From assembly GCA_963675495.1 (NCBI GenBank), contig OY776215.1:1120001-1184000 (forward strand): a DNA stretch of 64,000 nucleotides, given 5' to 3'. Source of the DNA: an uncultured Methanolobus sp. (GTDB taxonomy: Archaea; Halobacteriota; Methanosarcinia; Methanosarcinales; Methanosarcinaceae). The position numbers and the translations under genes were made by a program. Under the pieces are notes generated by a model, which was not told the DNA's origin, ran no database searches, and saw only the letters and a program-made list of their open reading frames with translations. This document shows, piece by piece, positions 198-31,107 of the stretch; within the stretch, counting starts at the first letter, position 1, and every line of letters begins with the position of its first letter.

Positions 198-2795
198 ATG
201 ATTTCGAAAACTTTTAATAGATTATTCTATTTCTTAAAAAAACTTAGTTGGTGGGATAAAAACGTGATATTTGAAAAAATAAAAACAGACCTCATATTGA
301 AAAACGATACTGATCATATTACACAATACCAACAAATGCAACTGGTACTTTCTGAACGAATACCTGTTAATGATCTGCCGGATGATAACAAAAAGGTCAA
401 CAAAATCTTAAGCAAATTCCGGTCAGGCGTCTCCTTACTCGCAGGGAAAAAGGAAAATGACGGTAACGGCTGCCCCTACAGGTCAAAAGTTTCAAAAAAC
501 AGCAAAACCATAACAATTGACTGCAATGAATGCGACCATGGATCCACATTTGAAGACGAACAATGCAGAAAGAACATATTCAATATCCTCCGGAAAGAAC
601 CTGTCGCAGGAAGACTCACTCTTTCAAAACTCTATGAAAGGGACTATGAAGGAAAGTCCCTTGCAACAATATACCTTATGTCAGGCTTGAAAGACAAGCT
701 GATATCTTATAAAAATTCAAAATTCGTACCTGAAACATGTGAGAGTAATGCGCAGTGCCGAAAAGAGCACGCAAGCATAATGAACATGATACTTGAATCA
801 TCAGGAACTGATCCGCTTAAAACCTGTTACATAATTGATAAGCTAATTGAATACAACAAAGCAAAAGACCCGTTGTCCAATATACGGGACGAATGCGTGT
901 TATGCAGGAGGAATTTCATAGAGATCCTCTGTGAAATGAACTCCGTTTCAAAAAGAATAACAAGGGGAATTGGCTCTGACAACTGCAGAGAATGCACAGG
1001 AGAATTCGGTGCACAATACAGAGTTGAGTATGAAAAACACCTAAGGTCCTACGTAAGGCCTCCTTTTTCCACATCCAGGATCTACACAGAACCACCGGAC
1101 AATACAATATTCCAGGAATGTTACGACATCAGTTATCAGGATGAGAGACAACTGCCTGTGAACATATACCAGCTAGCGGACCGTCCTGAGAAAATGTACA
1201 TCATCAACCCAATGGAATACTCCCTTGAAGAAAAGGAACTCAAACTGATAGAGAGAGTAAGGAAGAAGATGATAATGCACAGGCCTGTGGACTTGCAGTT
1301 TGCCGACCCGGCTAGCTCAAGGGAATACTTCCGCAGGCTCAGCAAACAGCTCTTGCTCGAAGAGAAGGATGTTGACGATATAATCTGCAACCCTGCAAAG
1401 ATGAATATCTGCAGTGACCTGCTTACGAAATATACTACCGGACTCGGGATACTTGAAGACCTGCTTTCAGATGAACGTGTCACTGATGTCTATGTAAATG
1501 CACCGGCAGACCGAAATCCGGTTCATGTGGTTCTGGACGGCGAGGAATGTGTAACTAACATCTATCTCTCCCAGGAAGATATGGAATCCATGGTCTCAAG
1601 ACTTCGTTCCATTAGCGGACGTCCTTTTGGAGAAGCAACTCCTGTACTTGAGATGTTCCTCAGGGACTATGGAGTACGTGTTTCGGTCATTGGTGACCCA
1701 CTTAGTGCAAAAGGGATCGCTTATGCATTCAGGAAACATGCAAAAGACCCATGGACACTCCCAAAACTCATCAATAACGGTTCCATCTCAGCACTTACCG
1801 CAGGCCTTCTCAGTTTTATCATGGACGGACAGGCTTCTGTCCTTGTTGCAGGGGGTGTCGGAGCCGGAAAGACCTCACTCATGTGTGCCTTGCTAATGGA
1901 AATGCCACAAAAATACCGCATGATAACCATTGAAGATACCCCTGAGATACCTGTTGAACAGTTTCAGGAAATGGGCTGGAAAGTCCAGGGGCTTAACTCG
2001 CAATCTGCCATAATGAAGTACGGCGTTGAGATAGAGCCAACTGTAGCACTACGGGCATCCCTGAGACTTGGTAGCTCATCCCTCATTATGGGAGAAGTAA
2101 GGGGACCAGAGGTAGCCGCCCTGTATGAAGCCATGCAGGTAGGTGCCACCGGGAACTCAGTAATAGGAACCATACACGGCTCATCCACAGATGCAGTCTA
2201 CGAAAGAATAGTAAATACACTTGGAGTTCCACCTGCATCCTTCAAGGCAACTGATGCCGTCATTGTCTGCGCCAATACCAGAATAGCAGGAAGTATGACA
2301 ATGAAACGACGGGTCATGCAGGTTGCTGAGGTCAACGAGAAATGGGAAGATAATCCAGGCAAGGTTTTCTCGGATATACTTACCTACAGTGCTTTAGATG
2401 ACCATCTCAAACCATCTGACATAATGGACAGGGGGCAATCCGCACTTATCGGCAAGATTGCAGACAAATGGGGTATTTCCATGGATGAGGCTTCCCTCAA
2501 CATACGCATGCGAGCCCAAATAAAATCCAGGATTGCAGAGTACGGCAAAGAAGACCACCGTCTGCTTGAAGCAAGGAACGTGGCCATTGCAAACAACATG
2601 TTCTGGTTGCTGATGGATAGGGAGATCACAGAACCTGACGGCACTGATTATCAAAGAGTCTATGAGCGCTGGCTGGACTGGTTCAATGATTTTGCCGGGA
2701 AAACTGAAGAACACGCTGCAATCACAGGTGAAGGACAGCAAACTGTAGGGCAAATTGAACACTATATCTGCGCAGGTGATCAGGCTGTACAATGA
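198..2795 (+). CDS. Type II/IV secretion / type IV pilus assembly ATPase (TadA/FlaI-like) with long Cys-rich N-terminal extension; true start may be downstream
   Basis: Walker A GGVGAGKT, Asp box ITIEDTPE, Walker B LIMGEVRG, His box GTIH; upstream GLGILEDLLSDERVTDVYVN typical of the family. Confidence 0.9.
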   Translation: MISKTFNRLFYFLKKLSWWDKNVIFEKIKTDLILKNDTDHITQYQQMQLVLSERIPVNDLPDDNKKVNKILSKFRSGVSLLAGKKENDGNGCPYRSKVSKNSKTITIDCNECDHGSTFEDEQCRKNIFNILRKEPVAGRLTLSKLYERDYEGKSLATIYLMSGLKDKLISYKNSKFVPETCESNAQCRKEHASIMNMILESSGTDPLKTCYIIDKLIEYNKAKDPLSNIRDECVLCRRNFIEILCEMNSVSKRITRGIGSDNCRECTGEFGAQYRVEYEKHLRSYVRPPFSTSRIYTEPPDNTIFQECYDISYQDERQLPVNIYQLADRPEKMYIINPMEYSLEEKELKLIERVRKKMIMHRPVDLQFADPASSREYFRRLSKQLLLEEKDVDDIICNPAKMNICSDLLTKYTTGLGILEDLLSDERVTDVYVNAPADRNPVHVVLDGEECVTNIYLSQEDMESMVSRLRSISGRPFGEATPVLEMFLRDYGVRVSVIGDPLSAKGIAYAFRKHAKDPWTLPKLINNGSISALTAGLLSFIMDGQASVLVAGGVGAGKTSLMCALLMEMPQKYRMITIEDTPEIPVEQFQEMGWKVQGLNSQSAIMKYGVEIEPTVALRASLRLGSSSLIMGEVRGPEVAALYEAMQVGATGNSVIGTIHGSSTDAVYERIVNTLGVPPASFKATDAVIVCANTRIAGSMTMKRRVMQVAEVNEKWEDNPGKVFSDILTYSALDDHLKPSDIMDRGQSALIGKIADKWGISMDEASLNIRMRAQIKSRIAEYGKEDHRLLEARNVAIANNMFWLLMDREITEPDGTDYQRVYERWLDWFNDFAGKTEEHAAITGEGQQTVGQIEHYICAGDQAVQ

Positions 2796-4722
2796 AAACT
2801 GGTATTACCATAGCTGCAAGTTCACTTCTGCAAACTTCAGATGGCTTGTAAAGGATTTCGATGTTTTTCGCCAGAGGTCAGATAATGCTACCAGTGAGAG
2901 CTACCGCAATGCCATGGTATACACAGGATTGGGACTCGAAGCTCATGAGACCGTGCTTCTTTCCTATGTGACTGCTGCTTTTGCATTGATAGGAATACTT
3001 ATTTTTGACTTTTTCCTTTTCAGGGTCACTAACTTTGAAACATCTACCCTTATGGCCGTTGTTTTGCTGAGCCTGCTATTTCCACTGGCAGTGCTACTCT
3101 ACATGAGCGAGTACATCAAGATACATGCAAAATGGATGAAAGTAAGCTCGCTTGGCGATATGCCTGAGATAATCAGCTACATTGTGATGTCAATGAAACT
3201 GGTGCCAAATATGGAGGTAGCCATTCGTTTTGCAGCCAGCAACTCCAGCAGGCCTCTTGCAAAGGACCTGAAAAAGATGATATGGAACCTGCATGTGAGA
3301 GAATACAGAGGAATTGATGATGCTATACTGGAATTTTCCAATCTCTGGGGAAAGGACAGCGAGTATTTCAAAAGGGCATTGCATCTCATCAAAAGTTCCA
3401 CAAGTGAGCCAGATGAGGCACAGAGAGTTATCACACTTAACCGGTCACTTGATCTGGTGCTTGAAAGTACACGTAACCTAATGGATAGTTTTGCTTCTAA
3501 ACTGAAGACACCTACATACGTGCTTTACTCCATATTCATCCTGATACCACTTGCGCTTGTAGCCCTGATGCCTGCGATAACCGTGGTGGGCATACGCTTT
3601 GGAATTGGAACTCTGGTTATTGTATATGATGTGGTCCTACCCTTGCTAACCTTCGCATATGCAGAATACATACTGATGCAACGACCTGCTGCATTCATTC
3701 CGCAGGACATACCTAAAAGCCACCCGGAACTCGTTGATATAAAAAATAGAAAAAGATACGCTCTTCTGCTTTCCTCAACGATAGGTATTGTAATATCTTT
3801 ACTTGGATACATTTTGATCTACAGGGGAAATCCCTGGAACATAGTATCAACAGCAACCCTGGATGGAATTATTCCACCCACGCTTTTCATAATCTGGGGT
3901 ATTGTGTTTGCGGTTTCCGTTTACCTGAATATTAGCTATGCACCCTACAAAAAGATACGAGATGAAATACGCAGAATGGAAAATGAGTTCTCAGATGCCC
4001 TGTTTGTCCTTGGCAGGAGGATATCAGAAGGCAGGTCTGCCGAAGAAGCATTTATTCACACAGCAGCTACAATGCGTGGTTCAGACATAGCAACTGCCTT
4101 TGAAAGGATATCGTTGAACCTGATGAACATGCGAACAGATATCCATTCCGCAATATTCGACGAGGATTTTGGAGCATTCAAGGACATCTATTCAGAGAGG
4201 ATCAAGACCACAATGATGCTGTTCATTGAAAGTGCCCACAAGAGTCATGTGGTAGCAGGTGTTGCTATTGTCAAGCTTGCAGACCACCTCAAGGAACTTC
4301 AGGATGTGGAACTGAACATAAAACAGTCACTCTATGATATGACCTCAACCATGCGTACGACTGCTGCGGTCTTTGCACCCCTTATAGCAGGAGTTACCAT
4401 TGCCCTTTCCGAAGTGATAGCAAAGATCCTCCAGAACATATCAGACAGCATAAACCGTCTGCCTGAAAATGCATTCCCAGGTCCTGCTCAAATATCCCCT
4501 GAGAACCTGAACCAGTCCATACCTTCTGATCTTTTCATGTTCGCCATTGGAATATATATCATATTCATAACGGTCATACTAATTCGTTTTTCAGGCACTA
4601 TTGAGTATGGAGGAGATAAGGCACAACTGCGATACGAGATAGGGCAGATCCTGCCAGTTACCATAATAGTCTTCACCGTTTCAACCATATTTTCAAGGGT
4701 TATTTTTGGAGGAATGATATGA
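2755..4722 (+). CDS. Type IV pilus / T2SS-F family membrane platform protein (TadB/TadC fusion-like); start possibly GTG at 2776
   Basis: Multiple TM segments separated by two soluble helical domains (DMPEIISYIVMSMK..., EFSDALFVLGRRISEGRSAEEAF); overlaps the ATPase gene. Confidence 0.8.
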   Translation: MNTISAQVIRLYNENWYYHSCKFTSANFRWLVKDFDVFRQRSDNATSESYRNAMVYTGLGLEAHETVLLSYVTAAFALIGILIFDFFLFRVTNFETSTLMAVVLLSLLFPLAVLLYMSEYIKIHAKWMKVSSLGDMPEIISYIVMSMKLVPNMEVAIRFAASNSSRPLAKDLKKMIWNLHVREYRGIDDAILEFSNLWGKDSEYFKRALHLIKSSTSEPDEAQRVITLNRSLDLVLESTRNLMDSFASKLKTPTYVLYSIFILIPLALVALMPAITVVGIRFGIGTLVIVYDVVLPLLTFAYAEYILMQRPAAFIPQDIPKSHPELVDIKNRKRYALLLSSTIGIVISLLGYILIYRGNPWNIVSTATLDGIIPPTLFIIWGIVFAVSVYLNISYAPYKKIRDEIRRMENEFSDALFVLGRRISEGRSAEEAFIHTAATMRGSDIATAFERISLNLMNMRTDIHSAIFDEDFGAFKDIYSERIKTTMMLFIESAHKSHVVAGVAIVKLADHLKELQDVELNIKQSLYDMTSTMRTTAAVFAPLIAGVTIALSEVIAKILQNISDSINRLPENAFPGPAQISPENLNQSIPSDLFMFAIGIYIIFITVILIRFSGTIEYGGDKAQLRYEIGQILPVTIIVFTVSTIFSRVIFGGMI

Positions 4723-9231: not shown

Positions 9232-10101
9232 TCAAGAATGTTCAGAAAAGTAAACACCTGCAACTACAAAAACTGCCCCTGTTATTACATAGATATTTGG
9301 TAAATTACCAATTATTGCGCTATCTCCTATAATCGCTACAAATGGAATCAGGTAGAGAGCAGTAGTCGAGGTAGATGATCCTGCAAGATGTATAGCTTTG
9401 TTCCAGTAGAAAAATCCTAATGCTGAACAGAACGCACCAAGATAAATGAGAGCAGCGAGAATTATCAGAAAGTCATTTTGAGTGAATGAACCTATCTTTA
9501 GGGTCTGTGCTTCATAGAATACAAATGGAAGGAGAAAGACCATACCTGCTAATGTGAGATCCCGGGAAACAATAAGTAAGTTCCTTGAACTCATACGCTC
9601 TATGATCAAGGTATAAAATATCCATGAAAAGACCGATCCAAACATAAGGAAATCCCCCAGAGGATTCAGGTTAAGATTGTATTTTCCATTCAGTATAAGC
9701 AGACCTACTCCAAAAAGAGCAATAAATGCACCAAAATATTTTTTCGGATTTGAGAGCTTCTTTCTGAGTACATCAACTGTCATAATAAAGAAAACAGGTA
9801 TTGTAGACCCGATCAGCGATGAATTGGTAGCTGTTGTGAATGTAAGTGCCACATTTTCAAACATGTAGTAACAGGTGATACCAAGAAAACCTGCAAGTAC
9901 GACATACCAAACCTCATTTTGGGCATAATTTTCCCGTTCCCTGGAAATAGCTAACAGGAGAATGGCCGCAATCAGGAAACGAGCAAATGCAATGATTGCA
10001 GGATCGAGGTAATCAAGCAACACTTTTGTGGCAACGAAGGAAAAACCCCACATTACAGCAACTATCAGTAAGTAAAGTATTCCTTTTTTTCGATCATCCA
10101 T
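9232..10101 (-). CDS. DMT/EamA family transporter
   Basis: 10 TM; WGFSFVATK, AFARF, ALTFTTATNSSLI, two EamA repeats. Confidence 0.9.
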   Translation of the reverse strand: MDDRKKGILYLLIVAVMWGFSFVATKVLLDYLDPAIIAFARFLIAAILLLAISRERENYAQNEVWYVVLAGFLGITCYYMFENVALTFTTATNSSLIGSTIPVFFIMTVDVLRKKLSNPKKYFGAFIALFGVGLLILNGKYNLNLNPLGDFLMFGSVFSWIFYTLIIERMSSRNLLIVSRDLTLAGMVFLLPFVFYEAQTLKIGSFTQNDFLIILAALIYLGAFCSALGFFYWNKAIHLAGSSTSTTALYLIPFVAIIGDSAIIGNLPNIYVITGAVFVVAGVYFSEHS

Positions 10102-10368
10102 TTTTCTTCATCTTCATGAATAGTAATATTAGAATTGCATTTGAGATGTTTGCACCTATATAGTTGTTTTGTAATATGCATCCATACAACTTCCAGCAAA
10201 TTTGAATGATGTAAGAGATGGAACGAAGGAAGAAAAGAAAGGAATTCAGAAACATTTGATACAGAGGAAGGATTTTGACATTAAAGGATCACAGAGAAAA
10301 TGTCTTAATGACATTCCCTCAATATTCCAGTGATTTCTATTATTAGTATCTATTTCTCTATATTTTAT

Positions 10369-10953
10369 TTACTCTGAATGTATCTTCTTCAGTAACCATG
10401 CCATGTTGGAGGCGAGATTACCCATGGTTTGCATACCTTCAGCGTCATCTGCGACATCCCCGGGATTCAGACCGATACCAAGGTTCCAGTAAGTTGAACC
10501 CACGGTGAACATATTGGTGATGCCGAACAGTTGATTGATGGAATTATAGGCACGTACTGCACCTGCCCTGCGAACTGCTACCACAGCAGCGCCAGCCTTC
10601 CTTGAAAAGAAACTATCGTTTGCAAGCGATACGAAACCTGCACGGTCTATGAGTGCTTTGGTCTCGGTGTTGACATCTGCAAAGTAAGTTGGCGAACCAA
10701 TCACAATACCGTCAGCTTCCTTCATTTTTGCAATGCATTCATTGATGCCGTCGTCATCAAAAACACATTTGCTGTTCTTATTCTCAAAGCACTTCATACA
10801 TGCTGTACATCCATGTATCTTCTTTCCACCAATGTTAATGGTTTCAGTCTCAATCCCTTCTGCTTCGAGTTTGGATGTGAGTTCTTTCAGCATGATTGCT
10901 GTGTTTCCTTCTTTACGTGGGCTTCCGTTTATTGCGACTACTTTCATTTGCAT
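10369..10953 (-). CDS. Iron-sulfur flavoprotein (Isf) / flavodoxin-like protein
   Basis: INGSPRKEGNT, CTACMKC...C cluster motif, GSPTYF. Confidence 0.9.
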   Translation of the reverse strand: MQMKVVAINGSPRKEGNTAIMLKELTSKLEAEGIETETINIGGKKIHGCTACMKCFENKNSKCVFDDDGINECIAKMKEADGIVIGSPTYFADVNTETKALIDRAGFVSLANDSFFSRKAGAAVVAVRRAGAVRAYNSINQLFGITNMFTVGSTYWNLGIGLNPGDVADDAEGMQTMGNLASNMAWLLKKIHSE

Positions 10954-20462: not shown

Positions 20463-20635
20463 TTAACAATAAATATTATGATGTGATGAAATGGAAGATC
20501 CACTGGAATTTTTGAGAAATATTAAATCCGTATCTATTGCAACTGTTAACAATAAATATTATGATGTGATGAAATGGAAGATCCACTGGAATTTTTGAGA
20601 AATATTAAATCCGTATCTATTGCAACTGTTAACAA
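20463..20635 (+). repeat. Exact 83-bp tandem duplication of the 5' end of the downstream gene
   Basis: Units start at 20463 and 20546; TTAACAA occurs at 20463, 20546 and 20629 (microhomology at the junctions). Confidence 0.92.
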
Positions 20636-21173
20636 CAACGTACCGGAAGTTCGGATAGTTGATGTAATGCTGCATGAGGATGATAAGTTATACTTTTTGA
20701 CGGCAAGGGGAAAACCATACTACAAGCAATTAAAAGCTAATCCCGAAATATCCATTGTCGTCATGGATGAGAATTATATCACTGTAAGAGTTAAGGGGAA
20801 AATAGAGTTTGTTGATAGAAGTTTCCTAGATAAGATGTTTGATGCGAATCCGGTTATGAATCACATATATCCGAGAGATACAAGGGAAATTCTGGAAGCA
20901 TTTTGCCTCCCAAAAGGTGTCGGTGAGGTTTTTGACCTCTCTACAAATACCCCAACGCGTGAAAGATTCGCATTTGGAGGAGAAACTCCGATCGAGCCGG
21001 GATACAGAGTCAATGACAATTGTATTGCCTGTGGCATGTGCAAGGATTCGTGTCCCACCGGAGCTATGACTGAAGGTGATGTTTACAGCATAGATAGTGC
21101 ACTTTGTCTTGAATGTGGCAATTGCTATGAAAAATGTCCTAACGATGCAATCGAAGAACCCCTTGAATTTTAA
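20574..21173 (+). CDS. Pyridoxamine 5'-phosphate oxidase-like (FMN split-barrel) domain fused to 2x[4Fe-4S] ferredoxin
   Basis: IATV...PEVR, LYFLTARGKPYYKQLKANP; CIACGMCKDSCP and CLECGNCYEKCP. Confidence 0.88.
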   Translation: MEDPLEFLRNIKSVSIATVNNNVPEVRIVDVMLHEDDKLYFLTARGKPYYKQLKANPEISIVVMDENYITVRVKGKIEFVDRSFLDKMFDANPVMNHIYPRDTREILEAFCLPKGVGEVFDLSTNTPTRERFAFGGETPIEPGYRVNDNCIACGMCKDSCPTGAMTEGDVYSIDSALCLECGNCYEKCPNDAIEEPLEF

Positions 21174-21200
21174 ATTTCAGACCGGAAAGGAGTGGGGATA

Positions 21201-21584
21201 ATGGAACAAAATTTAGAACAAAACAAGAATAATGCAATTGCATTCTACAAGATGGCTTATGAAGGAAATCCCAGAAAGGCAACTGAACTATACGTAGGCA
21301 AAGAATACATTCAGCACAATCCATTGGTGGATGATGGAACTGAAGCATTCATCGAATATTTTGAAAGGATGCACGCTGACTACCCCGAGAAAAGCATCGA
21401 GTTTGTCAGAGCCGTAGCAGAAGGCAATCTGGTTGCCCTGCACACACATCAAATATGGCCAGATAACGAAGAATATGTTACAATAGACTTTTTCAGATTT
21501 GACGATAATGGGAAAATAGTCGAGCACTGGGACAGCATACAAATGATCCCCGAAGAATCTGCGAATGATAACGACATGTTCTAA
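21201..21584 (+). CDS. SnoaL-like / NTF2-fold protein
   Basis: YIQHNP, AEGNLV..H, DFFRFDDNGKIVEHWD; ATG at 21201. Confidence 0.88.
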   Translation: MEQNLEQNKNNAIAFYKMAYEGNPRKATELYVGKEYIQHNPLVDDGTEAFIEYFERMHADYPEKSIEFVRAVAEGNLVALHTHQIWPDNEEYVTIDFFRFDDNGKIVEHWDSIQMIPEESANDNDMF

Positions 21585-21616
21585 GATACGGGTGGATGTT
21601 GATTGGGTTTTTTTAG

Positions 21617-21833
21617 AAAAGGAAAACTATTGGTTTTAGTGAGTCTGCTTATTTAGTTAAAAGGCAGGTTCTGAGGATGTTAAGCAGACGATATTGAGCA
21701 TATCTTATACTGAGTGGAAGAAAATGGGATTCTCAAAAGGCACATTGCATTATATGAAAAAAATGATGAAGCGGATAAGCCTTTTACTTTAAACTCTCAT
21801 GTTAGAGCAAGATTGGAGATGTGGGAGTGTTGA
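21617..21833 (+). pseudogene. cas1: Relic 3' end of a casposase (casposon Cas1-solo) gene, two frameshifts
   Basis: Manual translation across two single-base frameshifts gives KRKTIGFSESAYLVKRQ/SEDVKQTILSISYTEWKKMGFSKGTLHYMKK/DEADKPFTLNSHVRARLEMWEC*, matching my recall of the C-terminal HTH of Methanosarcinaceae casposases (...ILxISYxxWKKxGFSKGTLHYMKxNAxxDKPFTLNxHV...). Confidence 0.8.
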
Positions 21834-21927
21834 ATTTTTAACAATTATTAGATGCGCATAACTATTTATTTTAACAGAATCTTAATTATTATGAAAAATT
21901 TATGATTCTTTCATCAATATAACATAT

Positions 21928-22971
21928 TTGTATTTAGAGGTAAAATTGAAAAACTTAATCAAACCATGTATCACTAAAAGTGATAAAGATTATAACAATA
22001 ACATAGTAGCTTTATACAATCGATTAAGTTTAGTTGTGATAATATGTGCTACATTAGTTGCATTGTTTTTACTAATAACTGCCATTTCATATAGAGATAT
22101 AATTATTGATTTTTTATCATTTTTTGAACAAGCAGATGTTATAAAAGTATATTTAAAAACTCAGTATGATTCTTTTTCATTAGAAAACATTGCTTCAATA
22201 ACTGCGGGACTTTTTTTGTACTTTTACTTTTTTGAATATATTAAAAAATCGAATATTTATTCATTTTTAGATTCAACAAAAGAAAGCAAATACTTTCAAT
22301 TTTTGTTTTCGCTCTTTGCATTCTTCAATTACACATTAGTCATATTTATTGTACTTTATTTGATTTTTGTAAAAAAGTCATATCTTGAAACTTTTGTTTT
22401 AGTTAGTTTATGGATAATTACAAAGTATATATTTATTGATCTTCTTCTTATCTACAAAAATATATTGTTCAATTATAATTCACTAATACAATTCAACTCA
22501 AAACAAAAATATTATACAAATTTGAAAATAAGAAAAGCATGCCAAGATATTATAAATGATGGTGGAATAAATTTTGAATTAAAAGATTTTATAACAAAAA
22601 ATAAAAATCAAATTTCTGATTACACAATGAAATTTATAATTTCATTCGTTTTCAGTCGCAAAAATCTATTATTGAAATCGGTGCTTTTTATTAGCATATT
22701 TACAGGCATACTAACTATAGTTTTTGAATTTAATATTTTATCTATAATTTATTTACAATTACATTTCATATTGTGGTATTTTGTTTTGAGTGCCACTTTT
22801 GGAGTACCAACTACATTACAAAATATCCACTTAATAAATGGGGAGAATATTTCTAATGTGTATATAGTTGAAAAATCCCCAAGTGGACATACTATAACTT
22901 TAGATTCACAAAACCGTACAAAAAAAGTGATGAACTCTTCTATACTTTTCATCGAAAACAAAACAAACTAG
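21928..22971 (+). CDS. Very AT-rich hypothetical multi-pass membrane protein (casposon cargo candidate)
   Basis: 347-aa open frame with ~6 hydrophobic segments; composition far more AT-rich than neighbouring genes; start uncertain. Confidence 0.6.
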   Translation: MYLEVKLKNLIKPCITKSDKDYNNNIVALYNRLSLVVIICATLVALFLLITAISYRDIIIDFLSFFEQADVIKVYLKTQYDSFSLENIASITAGLFLYFYFFEYIKKSNIYSFLDSTKESKYFQFLFSLFAFFNYTLVIFIVLYLIFVKKSYLETFVLVSLWIITKYIFIDLLLIYKNILFNYNSLIQFNSKQKYYTNLKIRKACQDIINDGGINFELKDFITKNKNQISDYTMKFIISFVFSRKNLLLKSVLFISIFTGILTIVFEFNILSIIYLQLHFILWYFVLSATFGVPTTLQNIHLINGENISNVYIVEKSPSGHTITLDSQNRTKKVMNSSILFIENKTN

Positions 22972-23076
22972 TTGTTCATTGTGTCTACAAACACATACCC
23001 TTCTCGGAAGTATAAAAAGTATTCTTGAAAATATAGCGTACACTTTTTTCGCCTTGTATATATCCCAAAATACTAA

Positions 23077-23142
23077 TGCGACAGGTTTAATTCGAGCACT
23101 ATAGACCTTAGGAAAACAAACATAACACCCCTATAACCTAGC
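23077..23142 (-). pseudogene. Decayed third copy of tRNA-Leu
   Basis: TGCGACAGGTTTAATTCGAGCAC matches tRNA TGCGGGAGGTGTGATTCGAACAC at 18/23 nt; CCCTATAACCTAGC resembles the anticodon arm CCCTCAACCTAGC; same 158-bp spacing as the two intact copies. Confidence 0.6.
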
Positions 23143-23231
23143 TGAGTAAAAACCTCATAAAAAATATAACAAAAATACCAGCACAAACCGAAAAAGTAGC
23201 CACTGATCAAACAATTAACATAAAAAGAGTT

Positions 23232-23319
23232 TGGTGCGGGAGGTGTGATTCGAACACACGAACTCCTACGAGACTAGGCCCTCAACCTAGCGCCTTTGGC
23301 CTGGCTGGGCAACCCCCGC
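23232..23319 (-). tRNA. tRNA-Leu(GAG), copy 2
   Basis: Reverse complement GCGGGGGTTGCCCAGCCAGGCCAAAGGCGCTAGGTTGAGGGCCTAG...GTGTGTTCGAATCACACCTCCCGCACCA; anticodon GAG, long variable arm, encoded CCA. Confidence 0.95.
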
Positions 23320-23389
23320 ATAAGATTTGCTGATGGAATTGTCGATTTAAATGGAAGAACATTCACTGAAGATATACTGTTAAAGAGTT

Positions 23390-23477
23390 TGGTGCGGGAG
23401 GTGTGATTCGAACACACGAACTCCTACGAGACTAGGCCCTCAACCTAGCGCCTTTGGCCTGGCTGGGCAACCCCCGC
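23390..23477 (-). tRNA. tRNA-Leu(GAG), copy 1 (directly after rpoD)
   Basis: Identical to 23232-23319. Confidence 0.95.
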
Positions 23478-23528
23478 ATCATGAAGGACATACTATAAAG
23501 ATAAGGAGAGAAAATCTCCTAAACCAAT

Positions 23529-24323
23529 TCAGAGAGACTCTAAAATCTGCCCCAACTGGCTGGCTTTCTTTTTAATAGTTGTTCCTGCATTTATAATTAA
23601 CTGTTGAACTGTGTATGAACCATCAGATTCCATAGTGAAAATGAAAGATCTTTCATCTTCGGACACAGTAATGGCATCAATTTCACAAGCTAATTCACAT
23701 TGTTTACAGAGTATGCATTTCAGATTATCGTCGCCAGTTATTTCTGCACCGTTTGGACCAAGATGAATAATGTCTTTTGGACATTCACTCACACATGCGC
23801 CACATTCGTCACAGTTCTCGAACTTAACGACTGGCATATTCTTGTAGCCACATGCCACACCAGCCTGCCATTTTGCATGATCGTAGCCATAGCCCATATG
23901 GGCGATCGCTTCAAGCACCACTTTCTGACCTTCCTTCAGATCAATGATAGGAATGTTTTGATCAGCAGCCTGAACTGTTTCATCAGATGACACAAGGTCA
24001 CCTGAATATACCATTTTCGGACCTTCTGCACTGAGAGTCAGAGATACCTTGCATGCAGGGCATTCTGAACCGCAGGTACACTCTTCAACAGGTACGAACT
24101 CCCCAATGTCTGTTGTCAAAGGAATAAGGCCAAGCCTTAAAGCTAATTGTTCGTCAAAGAGGACTGAAGTATTGTTGTAAATGTTTACATCATCTATAGC
24201 AAGAGTTGGTACATCAGAGAGCGATGCTCTCCTTATACCGTTAGCAAGAGCTGCACTTGCATCAGACAATATAAACTTTGCAGACCTCTCAGACAGCTCA
24301 AGTATGTCTACTTCCATTGTCAT
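23529..24323 (-). CDS. rpoD: DNA-directed RNA polymerase subunit D (Rpo3) with ferredoxin-like 2x[4Fe-4S] insert
   Basis: ANGIRR...VPTLAID, RLGLIPL, HAKWQ; CDECGACVSECP and CILCKQCELAC. Confidence 0.95.
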   Translation of the reverse strand: MTMEVDILELSERSAKFILSDASAALANGIRRASLSDVPTLAIDDVNIYNNTSVLFDEQLALRLGLIPLTTDIGEFVPVEECTCGSECPACKVSLTLSAEGPKMVYSGDLVSSDETVQAADQNIPIIDLKEGQKVVLEAIAHMGYGYDHAKWQAGVACGYKNMPVVKFENCDECGACVSECPKDIIHLGPNGAEITGDDNLKCILCKQCELACEIDAITVSEDERSFIFTMESDGSYTVQQLIINAGTTIKKKASQLGQILESL

Positions 24324-29628: not shown

Positions 29629-31107
29629 TCATTCCTGTCCGAAGAAGGACCTTACCATTGGATGCATCTCCATCATCTGTTCGGACGCTATATCCTCATA
29701 CAAACGGTATACAATACTTACGGTAAGCAGAAGACCAGTACCGCCTGCACCTCCAAGAGTACCAAGCAGACTTGCAACAAGCGTAAGAGCACCTATGAAA
29801 GCACCACCTATGATAGTTACTTTAGGGATGTACCTTAGCATTACCTTTTCAATACTTCCAACGTTCCTTCTGAAACCTGGGATCTGCATACCGGAATTAA
29901 ATATCTTTTTTGCTGTTGGTTTTGCGCCCATTCCTGTTGTTTCTATCCAGAACAGAGCAAAGATGATACCACCTACGATCAGGAAGAAAGCATCTACAAA
30001 CACATGCAACCCAATCTGCCAGATAGCAGGCACAGGTGCACCATAGCTTGTAAACGTTTCCCTGACAAGTGAAGGTATCCAGTCATACGGACTGTGGATG
30101 GGAGCCAGATAATACATAAGACCATTTATAGGCTTTGAACCACTGAATTCTCCAAGGAAGGTGATGCCCCTTCCACTCAACAGGAGACCAATCATCTGAA
30201 TATTAGCCTGCAATGCCCTTACAAGGATCATTGGCAGAACTGAAGCATATATGAGTTTAACAGGGAACTTGCCCCTTGCACCCCTCACAGCACTATGTGC
30301 CAGAGGTATCTCAATGCGCGTACTTTCTACATAGACAACAAGCAGGAAGATGAGTATGGTACTTACAAGTGCAAGTATACCACCGCTTACCAGCATGAAC
30401 ATTATACCATCACCTGAGAAGAGGAAATCTGCTTCCACATTCTGCAGTATGTATAACCATTTAGGGAAGAATCCAGTAGGCAATCCACTTGAATCGGATG
30501 TCCAGTTAAACAAACCGGTCACAATCTGCTGGGAAACACCGGCCACAATAAAAAGACCGACACCTGAACCAATGCCCCACTTGGAAACGACCTCATCCAT
30601 AAAGAGTACCAGTGTACCGCCTATGCATATCTGTATGAAGATGATAAATGTAATTACTCCGGCACTTACTCCTAAAGTTGCTGCAAGAGCCTGGTCCGGC
30701 TGAATGTAACCACCAACTATTTGCGGCAAAGCCTCAAGTACTATCATTACAAAGACCATGAACTTCTGTGCGCCCTGGAAGAACGCCTGGTCTGATGGAT
30801 CGGACATGTCGAGCTTAATGACATCAGCACCAACCAATAGCTGAAGGACAATGGATGCGGTGACAATAGGACCGATACCCAGCAGCATCAGAGAACCCGA
30901 AGCTCCGGCAAAAAATGCTCTATAGGATTCGAAAAGATCTATCGAATCCGCTGACAATCCAAATAGCGGTACATTTGCAAGCGCAAAATAGAGAACAAGA
31001 ATTCCAAGCGTCCACATAAGTTTGTTCTTGAAATGAACATGCCCCTCCGGACTTGCAACCGCAGGCAATTTATTAAAAATTGGTTCCAAATTATCCTTAA
31101 GACTCAT
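29629..31107 (-). CDS. secY: Preprotein translocase subunit SecY
   Basis: LGIGPIVTASIVLQLL, KWGIGSGVGLFI, IPGFRR, GTGLLLTV. Confidence 0.97.
   Translation of the reverse strand: MSLKDNLEPIFNKLPAVASPEGHVHFKNKLMWTLGILVLYFALANVPLFGLSADSIDLFESYRAFFAGASGSLMLLGIGPIVTASIVLQLLVGADVIKLDMSDPSDQAFFQGAQKFMVFVMIVLEALPQIVGGYIQPDQALAATLGVSAGVITFIIFIQICIGGTLVLFMDEVVSKWGIGSGVGLFIVAGVSQQIVTGLFNWTSDSSGLPTGFFPKWLYILQNVEADFLFSGDGIMFMLVSGGILALVSTILIFLLVVYVESTRIEIPLAHSAVRGARGKFPVKLIYASVLPMILVRALQANIQMIGLLLSGRGITFLGEFSGSKPINGLMYYLAPIHSPYDWIPSLVRETFTSYGAPVPAIWQIGLHVFVDAFFLIVGGIIFALFWIETTGMGAKPTAKKIFNSGMQIPGFRRNVGSIEKVMLRYIPKVTIIGGAFIGALTLVASLLGTLGGAGGTGLLLTVSIVYRLYEDIASEQMMEMHPMVRSFFGQE

Follow-up and report, generated by a model that had tools for sequence, protein, structure and literature searches.

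The last 75 to 80 or so codons of a dead family-2 casposase gene, the remnant of a casposon near tRNA-Leu, are very probably what lies between a SnoaL-like gene and a pair of tRNA-Leu genes in this 64,000-nucleotide stretch of Methanolobus DNA (the window, meaning the whole stretch analyzed), and this is the best explanation of the locus as a whole. The relic is broken and keeps only the C-terminal helix-turn-helix (HTH) part of the gene. The features of the locus, from left to right, are the following.

21192-21584, plus strand: SnoaL-like gene of 130 amino acids in the left flank (Pfam SnoaL_2, E 9e-12)

21598-21833, plus strand: 3'-end pseudogene of a casposase (Cas1-solo), C-terminal HTH domain only, about residues 322-401 of a 401-residue intact relative

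21928-22971, plus strand: orphan open reading frame (ORF) of 347 amino acids, 23% GC versus 40.5% for the genome, with several hydrophobic segments of transmembrane type

23035-23066, plus strand: weak TIR-like stretch (T-run ... TATATCCC) that resembles the right TIRs of relatives, without statistical support

23067-23080, minus strand: target-site-like 14-mer, which reads CGCA plus ten AT-rich bases on the minus strand and conforms to the published signature

23077-23099, minus strand: tRNA-Leu-like 3' fragment, a look-alike of the T-arm and acceptor that ends in CGCA and equals the 3' part of tRNA-Leu(GAG) at 18 of 23 positions

23232-23319, minus strand: tRNA-Leu(GAG), copy A, with its 3' end facing the relic 1.4 kb away

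23390-23477, minus strand: tRNA-Leu(GAG), copy B, in a perfect 98-nt duplicate

Three-frame translation of positions 21500-21900 yielded the peptides KRKTIGFSESAYLVKRQ in frame a (21617-21667), SEDVKQTILSISYTEWKKMGFSKGTLHYMKK in frame b (21670-21762) and NDEADKPFTLNSHVRARLEMWEC in frame c (21762-21833), the last of which ends at a TGA stop codon (21831-21833). The peptide that the original prediction had read across two frameshifts was reproduced letter for letter, and among the listed ORFs only open pieces of 32 and 39 amino acids fall there. To map the breaks, the relic was aligned at the DNA level with the 3' ends of three intact cas1 genes from the same genus. Homology to casposase DNA starts at about 21598, some 15 nt past the stop codon of the SnoaL-like gene, and an in-frame TAG follows at 21614-21616. 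The first frameshift corresponds to one nucleotide missing between 21668 and 21669 and the second to one nucleotide missing within the A-run at 21757-21763, and the original stop codon of cas1 is retained at its place. With the TAG and the two 1-nt deletions, an intact reading frame is not present, and each of the two open pieces spans just part of the HTH domain. The relic is non-functional and unable to encode a casposase; in the history proposed below, the fragment gained a stop codon and two frameshifts after its truncation. Searches of the relic pieces against Pfam, NCBIfam and PHROGs gave no useful match, and matches to a RAP domain (E 0.042) and to a PHROG (E 0.3) were dismissed as chance.

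The tBLASTn check that had been proposed was run with two intact casposase frames of about 400 amino acids from the same genus (L006:406-1608 and L008:409-1608), which matched the relic solely by their last 60 to 75 or so residues. Against the 64-kb window, the first piece of the relic was hit with E values of 9e-12 to 3e-10 (residues 343-380, 62-74% identity) and the second with E values of 1e-7 to 3e-7 (residues 363-398), the identity to casposases being 57-74% overall. No other match in the window fell below E 0.1, and the similarity of the relic is beyond chance because its E values of 9e-12 and 1e-7 compare with 0.67 for the next-best match. When the whole 2.87-Mb genome was used as the target, the two pieces were still found at 6e-10 and 8e-6. 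The intact relatives had been reached by a DNA search of the relic's own genome, which found three more look-alike tails, and by a search of the family with one of them. This tail, a 40-residue open piece at L002:1486-1605, was matched in 108 of 151 family genomes in a six-frame search, and many of the matches end open frames of about 400 amino acids.

The two query frames are casposases by several lines of evidence. Both match Pfam Cas_Cas1 over residues 17 to 295 or so (E 5e-67 and 4e-70), and the L006 protein aligns with PDB chain 6OPM_A over residues 1-399 (E 2e-181), with the C-terminal tail included; 6OPM is the structure of the Methanosarcina mazei casposase, according to the portion of PMC6977970 consulted. 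The tail is common to 6OPM_A, the intact relative and the relic (...ILSISY.DWKKLGFSKGTLHYMK.NAK.DKPFTLNAHV...), whereas chains of CRISPR Cas1 align to the intact relative only to about residue 336. A passage of PMC6977970 describes an extra 60-70 C-terminal residues with a predicted HTH (342-406) in family-2 casposases, which CRISPR Cas1 is without; this passage and the intact same-genus relatives agree with the earlier statement that family-2 casposons of Methanosarcinaceae encode a Cas1 integrase with a C-terminal HTH. An HTH extension related by homology to the one in known casposases is present in the relic (residues 343-398 by tBLASTn), and the catalytic domain of Cas1 is absent, as the relic starts at about residue 322, past the Cas_Cas1 match. 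Because the CRISPR Cas1 alignment stops at about 336, the relic starts at about 322 and the HTH occupies 342-406, the relic lies wholly in the casposase-specific part. By its sequence, then, the relic derives from a family-2 casposase gene but is no casposase itself.

Intact casposons of the genus indicate what once may have surrounded such a gene. At every full-length casposase gene in five relatives, a PF03175 PolB frame of about 880 amino acids lies on the other strand, some 3 kb upstream; polB diverges from cas1, and the 3' ends of both face the termini of the element. Three of these casposons (L025, L026 and L029) have inverted repeats of 33-41 nt at both ends, 8-12.5 kb apart, with tandem copies and with CGCA-type flanks abutting tRNA-like 3' ends. 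From the stop codon of cas1 to the right TIR they hold 1.2-2.8 kb of DNA with 31% GC, which encodes a BglII-like endonuclease and mostly unannotated ORFs. Of the seven other ORFs scanned in this DNA, six had no Pfam match and one had a sub-threshold match to a DUF.

One of these intact elements, L026 (G077:C8:20600-40599), was seen to encode a 1208-residue TPR-GreAB-C-PIN protein at 403-4026 (PF20698, E 2e-21) and, directly after cas1, a BglII-like restriction endonuclease at 10069-10566 (PF09195, E 6e-10). Both may be defense-type cargo.

The orphan ORF to the right of the relic (21928-22971) occupies the position in which the intact relatives have their low-GC (31%), mostly unannotated ORFs. 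It has no match in Pfam, NCBIfam or PHROGs, no homologue in any of 150 other genomes of the family or in any casposon examined, and a single homologue among 5.8 billion proteins searched, with 53% identity and on a contig of 1.3 kb. On the strength of its position and low GC content only, it is probably casposon cargo located between cas1 and the right end of the element.

Beyond the orphan ORF, where the right end of the element would be expected, only a weak TIR-like stretch was seen. Profiles of relatives' TIRs were built for nhmmer from 8 sequences, then by leave-one-out, then from 13 sequences. The TIR-like stretch at 23035-23066 scored -0.3 to 0.1 bits (E 2-3 in a search space of 1.4 kb) and was missed entirely by the richer 13-sequence profile. 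A degenerate TIR pattern matched the window 5 times versus 4.3 expected, with none of the matches near the relic.

The target side of the junction can be compared with published casposons. A portion of PMC6977970 names a tRNA-Leu 3' end as the target and describes a TSD of 14 bp whose initial CGCA is formed by the final 4 bp of the tRNA, and a portion of PMC10359463 reports insertion of a casposon at a site partly similar to tRNA-Leu. In the window, integration at the 3' end of a tRNA-Leu-like sequence is represented by the fragment at 23077-23099 and by the neighboring tRNA-Leu(GAG), which lies 150 bp beyond it. ARAGORN and Rfam did not call this fragment a tRNA; it is presumably what the casposase recognizes. 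Visual reading of the left junction (21585-21616) revealed no further copy of the 14-mer at 23067-23080, and the 14-mer at the 3' end of the neighboring tRNA-Leu occurs at the two tRNA genes only, with other matches at chance level. Since the left end of the element is deleted, a TSD cannot be demonstrated and one conforming 14-mer remains. The order of the parts is the tRNA-Leu-like end, the CGCA plus AT-rich 14-mer, the element end, the cargo and the cas1 tail pointing outward. This layout of 21598-23099 is the arrangement expected at the right end of a family-2 casposon under the published model, as far as the model is set out in the portions of PMC4779613, PMC6977970 and PMC10359463 consulted.

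The two tRNA-Leu(GAG) genes are identical and are followed by rpoD and ribosomal protein genes. An Rfam search of 21400-23600 returned the two tRNAs and one chance match, and nothing else. An origin of the pair by duplication upon integration was considered and rejected: all 4 relatives examined have the two genes, although three of them lack the relic, and the duplication is therefore older than the relic and unrelated to it.

Further to the left, a perfect tandem duplication of 83 bp (20463-20628, two copies, 100% identical) covers the start of a PNPOx-ferredoxin fusion gene at 20574-21173, and a second start region, short and in frame, results from it (ORF 20491-20598). The duplication appears to be very recent.

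The 3.7-kb interval was searched in 36 genomes of the genus, and four relatives (G143, G070, G151 and G003) were aligned in detail. In the first three, homology with the window begins only at 23191-23223 and runs rightwards, and the regions fetched at this locus show no trace of a casposon. G003 is the closest relative, with a right flank that is 95% identical. Its left flank matches the window up to 21675, with the same junction after the SnoaL-like gene and the same TAG, and the start of its relic, KRKTLDFSEPAYAVERQDSEKIRQ, lacks the first frameshift; of the whole relic, G003 retains just some 25 codons at the 5' end. Because the junction after the SnoaL-like gene and the TAG are common to both genomes, the 5' truncation predates their split. 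Beyond the equivalent of 21675, G003 has 8.6 kb with IS transposases, an ATPase and a C-terminal fragment of polB, and this insert ends in a TIR (8.4 bits, E 0.2, leave-one-out nhmmer) exactly where homology with the window resumes (23062). By a hand count from the alignment, the TIR of G003 is about 53% identical to the TIR-like stretch of the window, versus 95% identity in the flanks, and on this ground the right ends of the two genomes may come from different insertion events. In a further relative, G111, polB fragments and a cas1 tail follow the orthologous SnoaL gene up to the end of the contig, and another contig of this genome begins inside tRNA-Leu. More than one event involving casposons has taken place at the locus.

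An intact casposon at the same locus, which the original prediction had suggested seeking in relatives, was not found: among the matches listed for the 35 other genomes of the genus, no full-length casposase lies near the flank with rpoD and tRNA-Leu. In three of these genomes (G111, G117 and G149), a contig starts at the flank or less than 1 kb from it, and an intact element could lie beyond.

A segment of about 150 bp at 23081-23231, which separates the tRNA-Leu-like fragment from copy A of tRNA-Leu(GAG), is common to the window and G003 only, the other three aligned relatives diverging at 23191-23223. Perhaps it is what is left of a further element, one by which the 3' end of the tRNA was duplicated.

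From these comparisons, a history of the locus can be proposed. A casposon would have integrated beside the tRNA-Leu(GAG) genes, into the tRNA-Leu-like 3' fragment that ends in CGCA. A later deletion or replacement would have taken away some 320 codons of cas1 together with the accessory genes, polB and the left end, joining the remaining casposon to the region just after the SnoaL-like gene before the split from G003. On the right-hand side, the cas1 tail would have survived, along with the low-GC orphan ORF as cargo, a degenerate end of the element and a single target-site copy. We infer integration in situ at the CGCA site, the cargo status of the ORF and the order of events. That the part comprising polB, HNH and the 5' part of cas1 had been deleted or replaced, as originally suggested, is supported by cas1 being the only casposon gene detectable in the window, by the junction in G003 and by the polB fragments in G111.

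The cas1 tail and the orphan ORF could instead have been imported already truncated, by another mobile element or by recombination in a variable region past tRNA-Leu, and we consider this improbable. The region downstream of tRNA-Leu(GAG) is variable indeed, with homology stopping at 23191-23223 in three relatives and with the two flanks separated in G003 by 8.6 kb that carry IS transposases, an ATPase and a polB fragment; a portion of PMC4779613 reports that elements with tyrosine integrases share tRNA-Leu sites with casposons; and the window has neither a significant TIR nor a TSD pair. However, the CGCA plus AT-rich 14-mer at the tRNA-Leu-like end lies just at the point at which one would look for the end of a casposon, a TIR is present at that junction in G003, and no integrase or other mobile-element gene was found within 21585-23231.

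The genome no longer contains the genes of a working casposon. When 30 ORFs from three intact casposons were searched against the window, only cas1 matched; the PolBs of three intact casposons had no match there, and no match to PF03175 was found genome-wide. The whole genome (2.87 Mb, one contig, 100% complete) has no match to Pfam Cas1 (PF01867) or Cas2 (PF09827), and no CRISPR-like spaced repeats were found in the 64-kb window. The earlier statement that the window has no CRISPR array or other cas gene thus stands, and the genome is without a casposase or casposon PolB able to mobilize the relic.

Debris of casposons is spread over the same genome. In addition to the relic in the window, C-terminal relics of cas1 were found at positions 30285, 132614, 317366, 893528 and 894953, and those of polB at 402787/403974, 408664, 318493, 789181 and 2647007; good TIRs lie at 402049, 407139, 407186, 787135 and 2648828. 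Without exception, the 6 cas1 relics and the polB relics stem from the C-terminal part of their genes. Of the six tRNA-Leu genes, three have traces of casposons at most 3.5 kb from their 3' side, namely TAA, CAA and the first GAG copy.

Two of these sites deserve separate description. The first, C1:402049-407173 (L040:1550-6674), is a 5.1-kb element between good casposon TIRs (E 5e-7 and 8e-6), in which cas1 is absent, polB is interrupted by an IS transposase and a TPR protein is encoded; another TIR (407186-407217) follows directly, and the whole looks like a degraded non-autonomous casposon in a tandem arrangement. The second, C1:787040-789534, has a casposon TIR 10 bp past the 3' end of tRNA-Leu(CAA), followed by a 427-residue frame that is homologous, at 66% identity, to a cargo ORF in the casposon of G077 and then by a C-terminal relic of polB, and is a second tRNA-Leu-linked casposon remnant in this genome.

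A census of the genus with a full-length casposase as the query gave 306 matches in 36 genomes, and 150 of them, among the matches listed, were counted by hand. These comprised 28 full-length genes, 1 cut by a contig end, 7 Cas1 proteins of CRISPR type (24-26% identity) and 114 fragments. Among the matches listed, 82 of the 114 fragments extend at least to residue 390, as opposed to 7 N-terminal and 25 internal ones, several of the 114 being halves of frameshifted genes. As the 3' ends of polB and cas1 face the termini and the relics are C-terminal, it is the ends of casposons that have been kept and the centers that have been lost. Repeated tandem insertion with internal recombination could be the route of decay, as could abortive or partial copies; alternatively, there may be selection on HTH-only ORFs that interfere with incoming casposons. 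That the genus-wide retention of C-terminal pieces reflects a specific mechanism of casposon decay or turnover, or selection for HTH-only ORFs hindering incoming casposons, is a tentative and rather doubtful idea. A description of such a bias was not found in passages of PMC4779613, PMC6977970 and PMC10359463 or in an exact-phrase search of the open-access literature, which is a weak negative.

It might also be asked whether the relic is itself a small HTH gene of casposase origin that has been domesticated and still works, perhaps as an inhibitor of casposition, which we regard as highly unlikely. Pieces coding for the C-terminal HTH are over-represented in the genus, as the count above indicates, and many C-terminal casposase fragments have open frames, both among the matches listed; moreover, the HTH domain is essential for integration by the casposase according to a passage of PMC6977970. 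However, the same portion of that paper reports no DNA binding by the purified HTH domain, and G003 keeps just the first 25 or so codons of the relic. In the window, two frameshifts interrupt the sequence that codes for the HTH and a TAG stands before it, leaving open pieces of 32 and 39 residues at the longest, and because of these breaks a functional HTH protein is untenable at this locus.

An origin from a CRISPR-associated cas1 of a lost CRISPR-Cas locus, which could be entertained since casposases belong to the Cas1 family and some genus relatives have CRISPR-type Cas1 (seen as matches of 24-26% identity among the matches listed and as frames of 339-355 amino acids), has hardly any likelihood, given that the relic covers residues 322-401, past both the Cas_Cas1 match (17-295) and the extent of the CRISPR Cas1 alignment (about 336), that it is 57-74% identical to casposases, and that neither CRISPR repeats in the window nor Cas2 in the genome could be found.

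Taken as the tail of a decayed casposon, the relic is genuine but ordinary, a further example of the known remnants of casposons, and it is of use in several respects. First, it marks a former casposon beside tRNA-Leu(GAG) in a genome now without casposase, casposon PolB or CRISPR adaptation genes. Second, it has value for annotation, as it explains the adjoining 23%-GC orphan gene as probable casposon cargo. Third, it adds one case to the published casposons of Methanosarcinales, with their tRNA-Leu-like CGCA targets and decay in place. In addition, the excess of C-terminal casposase fragments in the genus, among the matches listed, provides a modest lead on how casposons disappear.

Compared to CRISPR-associated Cas1 (PF01867), the parent gene of the relic belongs to the same protein superfamily, but the C-terminal HTH, the sole part kept here, is absent from CRISPR Cas1, and a match of the relic to PF01867 is impossible. 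Compared to the M. mazei casposase 6OPM (PMC6977970), the intact relatives of the relic align over the full length, tail included (E 2e-181), whereas the relic keeps only the HTH, about 20% of the gene, in broken form and without the catalytic Cas1 domain. As in the M. mazei casposon, so far as the consulted part of PMC6977970 describes it, the target is a tRNA-Leu 3' end with CGCA plus AT-rich bases. The remnants described in a portion of PMC4779613 are solo-TIRs in strains of M. mazei and fragmented casposons without TIRs in Methanococcoides burtonii. Unlike those solo-TIRs, the window retains a gene tail and probable cargo, with only a weak TIR-like stretch; like the remnants of both species in that account, it holds a decayed casposon at a site of tRNA-Leu type, in a locus shared with other mobile DNA.
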